DNA of 64,000 nt from Salinispira sp. (GTDB lineage Bacteria > Spirochaetota > Spirochaetia > DSM-27196 > Salinispiraceae), in contig CBDDDG010000010.1 in NCBI GenBank assembly GCA_965226555.1, forward strand, positions 288,001 to 352,000, in the 5' to 3' direction. The position numbers were made by a program. Shown here one piece after another: positions 20,601-26,600 of this stretch. The number at the start of each line of letters is the position of its first letter. Positions within the stretch are counted from its first letter, which is position 1.

Positions 20601-23600
20601 CCAAGGCATGGAGAAAGGTCGCGCGGAGGGGCATATTGAGGAGCGGAGAAAAAACGCCCGCAGTATGTTTTCGGAAGGCTTGTCGACAGAGGCTGTTCAG
20701 AGGATTACCGGGCTGAGCGATGAGGAAATGCGGACAGTGCGGAACGGATCGCATTAATTGGAGCCGCTCGGCCTAGGATGTCAGTACGGTAACGAATATG
20801 TCTGCTGGGAGCCTCTGGAAACTCGAAATTTTCATGATTCATTGCGTAAAACAACGTTGTTTTAAGCTCAATCATGCGGACACTGGTTAATTTTTCTGCC
20901 AGATATTAGGTTTCCAGAGGTTCCCTGCTATGTTTCAAAACGCAATCAAATTCAATAGCGATATCTCGGGCTGGGATGTCAGTTCGGTAACGACTATGAT
21001 CGCTATCTTCGCTTTCGCAAGCGCATTCAATCAGGATCTTGAGGAGTGGAAGGAACATTGGACGGCCGAAACCGGCAATAAGCTTACTACCGCTGATCCA
21101 TCCAAATATACCGGAACCACAACAAATATGTTTCAGGGTTCCGGCGTAACAACAACGCCGTCATGGTATGAGTATTAGTTTCATAGCCCATAGCCCGCAG
21201 CGGCTAATGAAACGTTGCAATTCAACTCAGGCAGGCGCGGGGCTGGTCAAACAGTAATATCTCAAAATAATAGAAACTTTTTACAAAAATTTCTCATTTT
21301 GTCATTCATATCTCGTTTTTCTCCCGTCATAGATATAGCAGGAAAATGTATGAAAAAATCATCCCAGAGCACAGGCCATATCCACGACATAGCCTTCAAG
21401 ATCGCCTACTACAGAACCCCCCGTATGATTCCCGACCTGCTACGGCTGTTCTGTGAGGATACGACTCTTGCCAAGCTGGACTTGGGCAAAATTCGTATTG
21501 AAAACCCCAGCTACATTGCAGGAAAAAAGAACCTTCACTGCGATCTCATTGTCAGCGCCCCCTTCTTGTCAGACCCCGACCGGAAGGCCCTATTCATTAT
21601 TGAACACAAAAGCTACCAGCATAAACATGCTCTCACACAGATCGATAATTATCAGTATGCCCTCAGAAACAGCAATGTGTACAATGAAAATGATGCTATC
21701 TATATACTGCTGCTCTACCATGGAAAAAATGAATGGAACCTCCCACTCACATTTTACAGTTCGCATGGAACTCCAGCTTCCGAATCCCTTACCGAAGGCA
21801 CGGTGGATGTCAGGGCGAGAGTGTCGTACATTGTGCGCGATCTGAGGCGAATGGACAAAAGGCAGTTGGCATTGCGTTTCGATGGAAAACGATATACATC
21901 GACTGCGTTGTGGTATATAATGCGAGATAATGAGATGGATGCTGAGGGGCTGAAAGAAATTGCGCAGCTCCTGAACGGTCTGTCATCACAAGACTTTACT
22001 GATCTGGCAGAGAGTGTGCTAGGGTACCTGAAAGATCTGGGACTGTATGGACAGTTTGAGAAAATTGACAGGGAACTATATTCTGAAGGAGAAAACAGTA
22101 TGCGGACATATAATATTACCAACGCCTTCGTCAGAGAAGGCATTGCGAAGGGCCGGATTGAGGGTCTTGAACAGGGAATGGAGAAAGGCATTCTGAAAGG
22201 CCGGGTTGAGGGTCTTGAGCAGGGTATCACAAAGGGCAGGGCTGAGGGCATTGAGAAAGGACTGCGAACAGGTCGCGCTGAGGGGCATATTGAGGAGCGG
22301 AGAAAAAACGCCCGCAGTATGTTTTTGGAAGGGTTGTCGACCGAGGCTGTTCAGAGGATTACCGGGCTGAGCGATGAGGAAATGCGGACATTGCGGAACG
22401 GATCGCATTAATTGAGCAGGGGCAAGCTCAGCTCCGGAGTGAGTATGTACTCAATATGCTTAAGGATGGTCTGTCTATGGACCTTATTCATAAGATTACC
22501 AAGCTCAGCGGGGATGAAATTCGAGCATTTACGAAAAACGAAAATGGCAGGGAAAACGGTAGAGCGTAGCACAGAGCTTTGCGCGCCTGAGCGTAGCGCA
22601 GAGCTCTGCGCTCCACCTCCGGCAGGCGCGGGGGGGCTGGTCGGCGCTCCGCGCCTGCTCGCCCAAGCATCCGGGCTGGTCGGCGCTCCGCGCCTTCACG
22701 CATCATAAAATTACTCAGGGGGAAAAACATGCAGATAGTCTGTCTTGATCTGGAAGGAGTTCTCATGCCGGAAATATGGCGTGCTCTGGCTCATGATACC
22801 GGCATTGAAGAACTCACACGCACAACCCGCGATGAACCCGATTACAACATTCTCATGCGGCAGCGGCTGAAAATTCTGCGGGAGCATCATGTATCAATAC
22901 AGGACATTCACCGAACCATTGCCGCAATGGAGCCGCTGGACGGGGCGGCGCTTTTCCTTGAAAGCCTGCGGCGGGAACGGCAAATCATCATTCTCTCCGA
23001 TACCTTTTACTCCTTCATAAATCCCTTCATGAAAAAGCTCGCCTCCCCCACTATTTTCTGTAATGATCTTATTATTGATTCCCAAGGAGTAATACAGGAC
23101 TATGAGCTCAGGAAGGAAAACGCTAAGGCAGACGCGGTTGCAGCGCTGCAATCCATGAACTTCACGGTCTTTGCCGCCGGCGACTCATACAATGACATTA
23201 CCATGATTCAGCAGGCAGACATGGCATGTTTCTTTCGTGCTCCCGAAAGTATACTGACGGAATATTCGACAATTCCTGCCTTTACCGACTATGAGAATCT
23301 ATTGAATTACATCTGCGGGGACTGAGCGGGACTTATGGCTGCTTTTTTCTGTACCTTCGGCTTTCCCGAAAAACAGGGGCAGAGCGATTTGAAAAGCGGG
23401 CCATGGTGGACAATCATTACCTGATACAGGATTCGAGGTAAAATGCGGGCGAGTTCGGCATAGCTCATACCAACTGTGTATTGAAACAAATTTACTTCCT
23501 TTGCTGCCCCGCCAACTGAAGCATCAACTGAAGCTCCATACGGCACAGACGGCTCGCCAACTAAATTGCCATAAGCAGCAGCCCTTGCCGCTTGCCCGCC

Positions 23601-26600
23601 ATCTACAAAAGGCAGCGCAACGGTGGGATTCATCAATATTCCGCAGATAAATGCCGCATCAACACCCTGATCCATAAGATACCGGGCGCAGGTAAAATCG
23701 TTAAGGCCGATCCTTCGCCTATCCTGTGTGTGCAGGTAGGCAATGCCATCCAGAATTTGCTCCAGCGGACCCTTTGAATAATGAAATGCGCGGGACATAT
23801 CATACCGGGAGCGCACAATTCCCACCTTGATCAGGGCATCGTGCATTGAACGAAACAACTGTTCAAGATTGGTGTTATTGAGAGCTGTGCGGAAGGCCAT
23901 AACAGCGATATCGGTTCCCTGGTTGTTTTTATGAATAATGGCCGGAATGTCATAATTTATTACATACATACCGCGGATATGTTTGACCGATTGTCCATTA
24001 ATGGTACATACGCTATTTTTCGAAACCCAGAGACTAAAAAGCTCTTCTGCGCTTATATCGAATATCTTCAGGGCCTGAAAGGCTCCAATGATCTCAGAAT
24101 CCTCAAAACTCCGGTGAAAATAGTTTTCAAATGAGGTGATCATCGCGGGGGTGAAGGCTTCCCTCCCCATGACGGCAAAATGAAGTTTCAGCGCATAGTA
24201 TTGTTCGATAATGTTATTTTTTACAATAAATTCACCGGGGAAGTTCGCCATATAGATTAATTCCATGGCGGAGCAATATTTTTCGGTGGATTTCAGCACC
24301 TTGAGCATGGTGCTTTCAACAAGTACCCCGTTCGTTTCGGGGCGGAGGGCAACAAAAATATCCTGATAATTCGGATCGGTTGCGGGGCCGGGATATGGGA
24401 CGATAATGGTCGGTAATCCGTTCATTTTCACAGCCAATTATCCACCCAGGAGCATATCCAGATCAATTTCACAGGCGCTCGCCGGCATACTAATACTCCA
24501 ATTCACCAGAATTCCAGGATGCAGTTCTCCAAACACCCCTACCTGCCTGCCATGTACCATAAGAGCGGCAACACGCCCGTTGATGAAACGAAGGTCATTC
24601 GATTCTTCAATAGTATATGTTTTTCCAATATAATAAAACAATGTTGCTACCTGACTCGAAATATGATTAAAGCCCGCATTCTGATCCGCTACGACAAAAC
24701 CGAGCGCATTTTTACTCCGTGAACCATAGGCATTTTCGGCATCGGGCGAGACTGTCTTACCCACTTCAAAAATAGCATGGGGATATGCCGCATTGCCCGA
24801 TACCGATTCAGCATTCAGTAAGGCAGGGAGAATTGAATTGCGAAGGAATTCATGATTTTCACTCATGGGGTTAAGAATTTGCACAATGTCCGCCGGTAAT
24901 AATATATCGCACAATGAGTCATGGGACGATGTTTTGTCATCGGATTCGGATGCTATGAGAGAAAAATTTGGATGCATTCGATAAATATAATCGCGGGCAG
25001 AACCAAGATAGTTGAATATCATCTCCTGAAAACCAAGTCCGACCATAACATTCCGCACGCTGCGCATAAATTCTTCTATCGGTGTAAGCCGGCCAATGGT
25101 AAAATCGTTCGGAAGTTCGGGGCTGAAACTGTCCATGCCCCTGCCTATCATAACATCTTCCGCAACATCGACACTATGGAGAAAGTCGTTCCGGTATTCG
25201 GGGGGAACGAGCAGTAATGAATTGCGGGACTTCACTATCTTGTTTCCCATGCGCTCAAGCGATTGCCGAATTTCCGTGCTATTTAGCCGGAGGCCCAGCA
25301 GGCTGTTAATTGAATGTGATTCGACCTTCTGCGCTTCCTGAAAATAATAGGGGATGGTAATTTCTCTGCCAAACTCGGTAGTAAAAGGATATTCTGCTTT
25401 TACGGGCAGTATCGTGAAGCCTTCGTCCGCCAGATCACAGGCAACAATTGAGGCTGTGAGTATGAGATTTTGAAGATTTGTACCCGTCAGCTCTACAAAA
25501 ATCTCATTATGACCAACCTCTACAGCGCCGATATCCGCGGAATTAATAACCGGCGGATAACTGAGGACAGCACCTTTATCATCGCAGAGAAGGGGAAAAA
25601 GCGGATGTTCGGCAACAATGTGCCCATATTCCTGCCCCTTGGGATGATCTTCATTTATTTTCCGGAGGCTCATGGGATGATCGAAGCCCAGAGGGACAAA
25701 GGTTGTTGTATCGGGGTCGGCGCCGCGGTAGTGCACAGGATATTGAATGCGGTCGTTTCGATATATGCCCATGGCAATGGCCCTGCGTTTCTGCCCGAAA
25801 TTCCAGCAGAGTTTTTCCTGTGTCTGGATAATTTCATTCAGTATGTCTTCTGTTATTGTCCGGCCGCCTGCGGCAAATCCGACAATGTAGGGGCGGATAT
25901 TTTGAATGCTTTTGTCTACCTGTATGCGGCGGTTAGCGGAATTTTTCGTGTCGTTTATGCGTGAAAAGAAGGGGTATTCGGGAATGTCGGCGCCTTCATA
26001 GATGCGCAGAAGGCGGGTAAGACCGGCAAGCGACCAGAGATCGGGGCGGTTCGTATCGTTTAGTTCGATTTTAATGGTATTGTCCAGCATTTCATCGAGT
26101 TCGGCCTTGGCAACGGTAAGTAATTTTTCGAGTTCATTGTTGGTACAGGTTTTTCCGAGGCGGGCAAAAAATGCGCCTCGGGATAGTTCAATTTTAGGCA
26201 TGGCGCATGCTCTCTGCGCTCGGCGGGGCTGCGCTCTGCTGGGCTGTTGCGCTCGGCGGGCGGGACTGACATCTGAGTCTGACTTTTTCAATGTCCATAC
26301 TGAAGAGTTCCCTGAGATCATTCAAGCCGAGACGCATAAGCGCCATACGGTCAATTCCAAGACCCCAGGCCAGAACAGGAACCTCAATACCCATTGGCCG
26401 AGTAACCTCTGGGCGAAAAATTCCTGCTCCCCCAAGCTCAAACCAGCCAAGTGTCGGATGCTCTATGTGAACCTCAACTGAGGGCTCCGTGAAGGGAAAA
26501 TATCCCGGAACATATTTAACAGCCGAGGCTCCCGCAATTTCAGTTGCGAACATCTTGAGGAGGCCAAGCAGAGTTCTCAACGATACGCTTTCCCCCAGAA

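Follow-up and report, generated by a model that had tools for sequence, protein, structure and literature searches.

A spirochaete branch of a long-form nucleoside diphosphate kinase family keeps the histidine core and lacks residues used to bind nucleotides

A 372-residue protein encoded in a 64,000-nucleotide stretch of a Salinispira sp. genome (contig CBDDDG010000010.1, positions 288,001–352,000; hereafter the window) is a real representative of the superfamily of nucleoside diphosphate kinase (NDK) and belongs to an unnamed clade on which our literature search found no paper. This spirochaete branch, with Arg, Arg and Asp at the positions of NDK Lys12, Asn115 and Glu129, is derived from a wider family of long-form NDK proteins that retains the full active site, a family overlooked in the initial annotation. 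We tentatively propose, with a probability of about 0.45, that the branch protein works as a phosphotransferase or phosphatase with a histidine relay, acting on a small phosphorylated compound other than a nucleoside diphosphate.

The branch gene (23307..24425, minus strand) starts with ATG at 24425 and ends at 23307; alternative starts are GTG at 24431 and TTG at 24437, the latter giving 376 residues. The initial annotation numbered the 376-residue form, and its R32, Y81, H219, S221 and D230 are R28, Y77, H215, S217 and D226 in the form used here. As it stated, the gene lies behind pheS–pheT: the reading frame begins 12 nt past the stop of pheT (24438..26321, minus strand), annotated as an archaeal-type PheRS beta subunit, with pheS at 26194..27819 on the same strand. 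On the other side, the gene overlaps by 19 bp with the convergent thrH (22729..23325, plus strand; phosphoserine phosphatase/homoserine phosphotransferase). Contigs confirm the window's sequence, and a promoter/terminator scan gave signals near chance level. Consistent with the reported lack of a Pfam hit, a Pfam/NCBIfam search with the window protein returned nothing at E ≤ 10, NDK models found no match at E ≤ 0.1 among the 35 branch members of our alignment A2, and the only database label of branch proteins is ‘hypothetical’.

When the model of the window's own protein (pLDDT 88.3) was searched against 48,161 chains, the top eight matches were again NDKs or NDK-domain ciliary proteins (Z 7.3–6.4), followed by RP2 (Z 5.0) and the first clearly unrelated chain (Z 4.5). 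Re-alignment was best with human NME1 (Z 8.0, rmsd 2.7, 127 aligned positions), and Foldseek with the same model returned nothing at E ≤ 0.001. The NDK-like fold first proposed thus recurs, at Z scores lower than those originally noted, and the fold match of the window protein model taken alone (Z 6.4–8.0) is modest.

By sequence, the only bridge from the branch to NDK is the long-form family. Our branch alignment A1 and long-form alignment A3, which have no sequences in common, matched in hhalign with a probability of 99.2 and an E-value of 6e-20 over 282 columns. NDKs made up 31 of the 32 PDB sequences found by the A3 profile at E ≤ 1 (best 2.7e-4), and a long-form model matched solved NDKs at Z 13.7–12.2 (Foldseek E 9e-6). 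Searching the PDB directly with the A1 profile gave no NDK match at E ≤ 10, and direct comparison of A2 with the local NDK gave a probability of 0.5. A2 and A3 share three sequences, and their comparison was used for register only, not for homology. In a tree, the branch forms a clade apart from the long-form family with support of 100. Through this chain of sequence matches together with the fold, the proposed NDK-superfamily origin holds.

In NDK, Lys12 and Asn115 contact the ribose, Phe60 clamps the base, and R88, T94 and R105 bind the substrate phosphates. We counted conservation in 79 branch loci from 42 families and, in a separate set, compared 221 full-length branch members with 126 long-form proteins. 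Superposition of model residues 17–234 on NME1 1–137 pairs R28 with K12, R212 with N115, H215 with H118 and D226 with E129, provided that the ends are ungapped. Each of R28, P29, N32, E37, N61, G64, K148, P161, H215 and D226 occurs in 79/79 loci, and residue 217, at the Ser120 position, is Ser or Thr in all 79. The predicted phosphoacceptor H215 (23781..23783; this and all following features are on the minus strand) is present in 219/221 members; the histidine called invariant is therefore so across the loci and is substituted in two full-length members. D226 (23748..23750), where NDK has the glutamate that orients the histidine, is found in 221/221. Arg occupies the Lys12 position (R28, 24342..24344; register from alignment and structure) in 218/221 members. 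R212 (23790..23792) is Arg in 71/79 loci, with His in six, and in 213/221 members, being substituted in the other eight. Y77 (24195..24197; NDK Tyr52) is kept in 76/79 loci and 214/221 members and substituted in seven. The R/Y/H/S/D core described earlier thus survives as a His/Ser/Tyr/acid core.

Six of ten NDK active-site positions are changed in the branch, which, judged from the alignments, has lost F60, R88, T94 and R105 together with the Kpn loop. Where the long form has its invariant Phe60, the branch has Asp or Asn, in a register that may be off by one residue and beside a conserved Tyr158 (72/79 loci). From the DSSP assignments of two models, a single long helix and a linker (residues 184–211; 23793..23876) take the position that helix 3 and the Kpn loop have in NDK. 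Neither Arg nor Thr is conserved there: across columns 181–211, Arg plus Lys never exceeds 26/79 and Thr never exceeds 12/79. Of two Kpn-loop motifs, one is present in 105 and the other in 112 of the 126 long-form proteins, compared with 2 and 5, respectively, of the 221 branch proteins. Between the Tyr52 and Phe60 positions lies an insertion of about 75 residues (78–156; 23958..24194), common to the branch and the long-form family, which here carries G144-Q145-x-x-K148. A further, private low-confidence insertion at about residues 277–307 (23505..23597) is missing from homologs. The new invariants of the branch are N32, E37, N61 and K148, and A60 is invariant as well; going by the general architecture of NDK, we take N32, E37, A60 and N61 to fall on the dimer surface and not in the active site. 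For K148, Y158 and R212, the positions with respect to the histidine are inferred ones.

Within its order, the branch gene occurs in 93/99 genomes and in 50/50 good genomes. It is single copy, as originally claimed: 91 of the 93 carriers have one match, and the other two have split genes. Canonical NDK accompanies it in 49 of the same 50 good genomes, again as reported. Calling the gene core to one order was right for the order and too narrow as a boundary, since it also extends across much of the class Spirochaetia (181/401 genomes; single copy in 45% of sampled genomes) and into other classes. Some families, f7 and f95 among them, contain both carriers and non-carriers. All named members are from Spirochaetota except one protein from a Zixibacteria-labelled MAG; cultured carriers named in databases are Salinispira pacifica, Spirochaeta lutea, S. 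africana and Rarispira pelagica, and a plasmid search gave no match. Outside the order, 30 of 36 chosen carriers have canonical NDK. A PF00334 match is missing from 5 of these 36, and because it is also missing from 4 of 9 non-carriers, the branch and canonical NDK show no complementary pattern. Two genomes carry both an intact long form and the branch. The description of an unrecognised NDK branch stands, the branch being unnamed and kept in genomes that also have canonical NDK, and its retention in single copy even in genomes of 1.4–2.6 Mb suggests a housekeeping function in addition to that of the ordinary enzyme.

Neither the neighbour nor the co-occurrence survey yielded a gene pointing to a pathway. 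We rejected pheT as a fixed partner; it is directly upstream in only 17/79 loci, and the synteny is inherited. ThrH is encoded near the branch gene in 11/42 families yet does not co-occur with it (branch gene 15/17 and ThrH 0/17 in family f72; 0/38 and 37/38 in family f76). A cNMP-DUF6909 gene lies nearby in 7/42 families but was not found in the Salinispira genome itself; it occurs in 5/301 genomes of the phylum, two of them carriers, with no match in any control genome.

With the nucleotide-binding residues lost, the substrate is probably different from that of NDK, as the initial annotation held. In the relay that we favor, D226 would set the orientation of H215, the role that E129 has toward H118 in NDK, and H215 would take up a phosphoryl group that R28, R212, S217, Y77 and perhaps K148 of the insertion would hold in place. 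The phosphoryl group would then pass to an acceptor or to water in a ping-pong cycle. Because the base clamp, ribose contacts and beta-phosphate residues have been lost and the histidine is flanked by two arginines, the donor or acceptor is predicted to be a compact anion, for example pyrophosphate, polyphosphate or an acyl-, enol- or sugar phosphate. The protein would not assemble into the usual hexamer, since it lacks the Kpn loop and its N-terminal strand is predicted at the place of the dimer partner's strand. Characterised NDKs have almost the same active site throughout, and members that diverge from it are commonly taken as weakened or dead. A histidine relay that is kept while a different set of residues becomes fixed across whole classes of a phylum is the pattern expected of a new activity. 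For assays of NDK-fold activity on non-nucleotide phosphates, the parent family with its intact site offers a convenient control.

Alternatively, the branch could be a remodelled nucleotide kinase, a phosphohistidine enzyme still loaded from NTP, in which R212, R28, K148 and Y158 replace R105, K12, R88 and F60, with a narrow nucleotide range or a need for a partner as in NME6–RCC1L. Such an enzyme would fit a parent family that retains the whole NDK site, basic and aromatic residues conserved close together in sequence (K148, Y158), the five carriers that have no PF00334 match and the activation of NME6 in a complex, as described in part of PMC11312278. We nevertheless consider it unlikely, given the six changed positions, the Asp or Asn at the base clamp, the replaced Kpn loop, the almost constant presence of canonical NDK and the absence of a complementary pattern. 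Also unlikely is an NDK-fold protein without catalytic activity that would bind a phosphate-carrying ligand or a protein partner, in the manner of RP2/NME10 or inactive ciliary NDK domains. The loss of R88, T94 and R105, by which the site may never become loaded, counts against the proposed relay and fits this reading, F60 is gone too, the invariant N32, E37, A60 and N61 presumably lie on the dimer surface, and the histidine is dispensed with in 2/221 members. Moreover, a retained histidine is no proof of catalysis, because human NME6 keeps all site residues and yet is inactive as a monomer, according to passages of PMC8597243. Against a dead domain, however, the His–Asp pair, Ser/Thr and Tyr persist across classes, and a Glu-to-Asp change in 221/221 members agrees with selection for a particular geometry around the histidine; XRP2, by comparison, is described in an excerpt of PMC7461546 as being without important catalytic residues.

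The boldest suggestion of the initial annotation, an NME-like bacterial protein histidine kinase, or else a phosphohistidine phosphatase, whose open, loop-less site takes a protein docked on the invariant surface, now appears improbable. A stand-alone version, loaded by a non-nucleotide donor (pyrophosphate or polyphosphate), with its target docked on the N32/E37/N61 surface and near-universal in many spirochaete families, has a similarly slim chance. Loss of the small-nucleotide clamp and the invariant surface patch would suit these ideas, NME1/2 do act on proteins, EnvZ and CheA are reported phosphorylation targets of E. coli NDK (passages of PMC7461546), and in a few families the gene is followed by one with two REC domains on the same strand. 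Yet REC and histidine-kinase genes are not enriched as neighbours (7/158 first-neighbour slots versus 23/484 slots at ranks 2–5), and we rejected two-component partners. The gene is kept in the Salinispira genome with only seven REC proteins and no CheW found by search. CheW was not found in 4/5 carriers tested, all five of which have flagellins, and a chemotaxis link was dropped. Furthermore, the branch has lost the residues by which NME protein kinases are loaded from ATP, and a single copy with no sensor domain is unlike signalling.

Among known systems, the long-form family (about 340 residues) resembles the branch across its whole length, insertion and C-terminal extension included (282 aligned columns), with the same order of secondary structure in two models. 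It differs in having an N-terminal helix and a full set of ten site residues, none of them in fewer than 124/126 proteins, whereas the branch is without a complete site. Members of this family turn up sporadically across Bacteroidota, Acidobacteriota, DPANN archaea and other groups (296 GTDB loci), and in a euglenid the protein is repeated four-fold. It is uncharacterised, with a few members labelled NDK by NCBI or JGI or matching PF00334; 80 of its loci had no neighbour conserved across lineages, and a weak test for longer fused forms found none at E ≤ 0.001. Canonical NDK (Ndk/NME1–4, PF00334, EC 2.7.4.6) has in common with the branch the core fold, Tyr52, His118, Ser120 and an acid at Glu129, but is less than half as long and is without the insertion and the N- and C-terminal extensions; its K12 and N115 become Arg in the branch, which has no Kpn loop and no counterpart of F60, R88, T94 or R105. 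Roles for K12, N115, F60, R88, T94, H118 and E129 are given in active-site passages of PMC7461546. The trypanosomatid TcNDPK3, described in part of PMC8833001 as a DM10-type NDK, does not belong to this family. Group II NME proteins (NME5/RSP23, NME6, NME7 and RP2/NME10) likewise have divergent NDK domains with altered sites and oligomers and are among the top fold matches. They are eukaryotic and without the insertion, and their matches tie with those of ordinary NDKs and so show no special kinship. Finally, the loss of the catalytic histidine system expected of dead NDK domains of the RP2/NME10 type is not seen in the spirochaete branch, which keeps the histidine in 219/221 members and its aspartate partner in 221/221.

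The ORF lies on the minus strand at 24425-23307 of the window and encodes 372 aa, as the initial annotation had it, although residue numbers there run 4 higher, being counted from a TTG at 24437. pheS-pheT precedes it by 12 nt, and a convergent thrH overlaps its end. The reported lack of a Pfam family also holds: neither Pfam nor NCBIfam gave a match at E ≤ 10 for the window protein or three named homologs. A word-indexed search returned 292 homologs; among the best 120 listed, every named one is a hypothetical protein, and the named ones are spirochaetal save for one Zixibacteria-labelled MAG. 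Only the closest homologs (P0011, P0026) share a C-terminal tail (window 23307-23420, minus strand) with two neighbouring histidines and one or two cysteines, possibly a metal site. Elsewhere in the window lie short repeats between genes, of which the genome has some 80 to 600 similar copies (27860-27910, 19940-19990, 20500-20530, 20940-21020, 19080-19200 and 22620-22690) and a member of an Rpn/YhgA-like putative transposase family (21215-22411, plus strand; related pieces at 14980-15782, minus strand) that is strongly expanded, with 124 tblastn matches in the genome. Two genes were named by eye: an IS30-like transposase (16217-17101, minus strand) and, at 17226-19031 on the plus strand, a lipoprotein-like protein whose repeats are of fibronectin-III-like and surface types.

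An AlphaFold2 model of the window protein, built from 120 sequences, has a pLDDT of 88.3 and a pTM of 0.86. The NDK-like fold claimed previously reappears in a search of 48,161 representative chains, where the top 8 matches are NDKs or NDK-domain ciliary proteins at Z 7.3-6.4, a result that by itself is suggestive only because Z under 8 is common; RP2 follows at Z 5.0 and the first clearly unrelated chain at Z 4.5. Foldseek likewise ranks NDKs first, but none at E ≤ 0.001. Re-alignment paired residues 17-234 of the model with 1-137 of the human NME1 chain (Z 8.0, rmsd 2.7, 127 residues aligned).

A bridge to NDK comes from sequence searches. phmmer matched 103 of 1.84 billion representatives, and the tail of these matches (E 1e-8 to 1e-4) includes ~340-aa proteins and one 1382-aa four-repeat protein, from the euglenid Jenningsia; PF00334 is matched by three of the tail proteins. 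A query with one of these yielded 235 proteins, and some among the best 120 listed are labelled NDK. We aligned 115 of the proteins found (A3), which represent a ‘long form’ of NDK with a full active site and the insertion that the window protein also has. A3 aligns with A1, our alignment of the spirochaete branch, at a probability of 99.2 (E 6e-20, 282 columns); NDKs make up 31 of the 32 PDB sequences that its profile matches at E ≤ 1; and the long-form model (pLDDT 96.8) matches NDKs at Z 13.7-12.2 and Foldseek E 9e-6. Together, these alignments and model matches show that the branch gene is an NDK descendant. As a lead only, the ESM Atlas places the branch in a cluster with 22% NDK (score 0.88); the bridge protein falls in an NDK-named cluster. 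GTDB has 296 loci with the long form; most of the 80 listed are from Bacteroidota, with Acidobacteriota, DPANN archaea and others also represented. Just upstream of the long form, at six loci from distant phyla (L073:3201-3827, L072, L092, L099, L101 and L142), lies an unnamed ~210-aa ORF without a Pfam match, on the same strand in five, kinase-like by eye and adjoining nucleotide-metabolism-like genes.

Within the host's order, the branch gene is present in 93 of 99 genomes and, as a single copy, in all 50 good ones. Its description as core to an order therefore stands, but it is not confined to that order: within the class it occurs in 181 of 401 genomes, some of which measure 1.4-2.6 Mb, and in 120 of the 305 good ones, with 93 of 156 genera represented, and it is in 23 of 301 genomes sampled across the phylum, 17 of them outside the class. 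Searches did not detect it in several entire families of the class, such as f76 (0/38), or in families f3 (0/28) and f6 (0/6) of the phylum sample. A separate canonical NDK, as previously reported, accompanies it in 49 of the 50 good order genomes. Among 36 chosen carriers elsewhere, 30 have a canonical NDK, one has only a tandem type and five have none that we found; the figures for nine non-carriers are three canonical, two tandem-type and four with none found. Only 2 of the 301 phylum genomes hold an intact long form, and both have the branch too. In those two the long form follows fabH, as the branch gene does in one other genome, a hint of common origin. A quick, unrooted maximum-likelihood tree of 92 rows separates branch and long form with support of 100 and unites branch members from other classes in a subclade (support 99).

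The active site was compared across 347 sequences (280-400-aa proteins, ORFs of 56 loci and four repeats, with shorter fragments left out), which are not independent because the source sets overlap. Positions carry human NME1 numbering, in agreement with passages of PMC7461546. Of the 126 long-form sequences, no fewer than 124 retain each of K12, Y52, F60, R88, T94, R105, N115, H118, S120 and E129. The 221 branch sequences have Arg at K12 (218), Tyr at Y52 (214), Asp/Asn at F60 (219, where the register may be off by one residue and Tyr158, which is conserved, adjoins), Arg at N115 (213), His at H118 (219), Ser/Thr at S120 (221) and Asp at E129 (221); their columns offer no conserved counterpart of R88, T94 or R105. 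The places that two aligners assign to R88 and T94 are offset, from one aligner to the other, by one helical turn, but in branch columns 181-211 Arg plus Lys never exceeds 26/79 and Thr never 12/79. These last counts come from a second set of 79 loci in 42 families, chosen by hand with roughly one or two for each genus, in which R28, P29, N32, E37, N61, G64, K148, P161, H215 and D226 are each present in 79/79, S/T217 in 79/79 and R212 in 71/79. The histidine, previously called invariant, is so in that set but is replaced by Arg or Gln in 2 of the 221 sequences, P0146 and P0153 of one long-branch subclade. Both retain the other motif residues and, judged by sequence, appear to be natural dead variants.

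Of 126 long-form sequences, 105 and 112 contain the two Kpn-loop motifs, versus 2 and 5 of 221 branch sequences, and the branch model has a single helix (184-200) in place of the long form's helix-loop-helix. Lacking the Kpn loop, the branch protein is unlikely to form a hexamer. Where it and the long form match tandem NME7-type chains, the alignment begins upstream of the matched NDK domain, by the domain limits of NME7 (branch model 7 on chain 124 and 8 on 127; long-form model 1 on 100). From these range ends, we infer that an N-terminal strand may imitate that of a dimer partner.

pheT is directly upstream of the branch gene at 17 of 79 loci. Of 42 families, 11 have thrH nearby and 7 have a cNMP-DUF6909 gene; at other loci the neighbours vary. 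ThrH and DUF6909 were rejected as partners, as neither tracks the branch gene across genomes. The cNMP-binding domain is fused to DUF6909 (L160:4195-6288, L159, L161, L175, L207-L209, L211, L212 and L214), and the C-terminal part of one copy weakly matches the purine-phosphorylase superfamily, making a cyclic-nucleotide-regulated nucleosidase possible. REC/histidine-kinase genes, detected with our own small profiles, fill 7 of 158 first-neighbour slots versus 23 of 484 at ranks 2-5, and CheW was not found in the host genome or in three of four small carriers. Context thus names no pathway, and the protein-histidine kinase proposed initially gains no support from it; we consider such a kinase, or a corresponding phosphatase, improbable. 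The host genome (93.5% complete) has four flagellin matches, with no CheW and only seven REC-domain proteins found; its sequence suggests a bacterium possibly motile without chemotaxis.

Two further readings, somewhat less doubtful than protein-histidine chemistry and on a par with each other, make the protein either a nucleotide kinase that is remodelled or activated by a partner, or a dead protein that binds a ligand or a partner. NME6 is reported to have a full site yet to be inactive as a monomer (PMC8597243), and to be active with RCC1L (PMC11312278), a caution on any mechanism read from residues. We found no report on the branch in the open-access literature, our scope excluding subscription papers and supplements, where a proteomics table could list the branch's locus tags. 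The branch is a real, conserved and unnamed part of the NDK superfamily, and its active site has been rebuilt. It should surprise an NDK specialist and is easily tested, but there is no substrate lead and the boldest reading is unsupported.

From the residues retained and lost, we favor, at a probability of roughly 0.45, a histidine-relay phosphotransferase or phosphatase that would act on a compact, non-nucleoside phosphate. In NDK, as described in passages of PMC7461546, E129 holds N3 of H118 so that phosphate goes onto N1, K12 and N115 make the ribose contacts, the base is clamped by F60 and V112, and phosphates are held by R88 and T94. By comparison, the branch retains the histidine-orienting set, has lost the nucleoside-specific set and has two arginines fixed beside the histidine.
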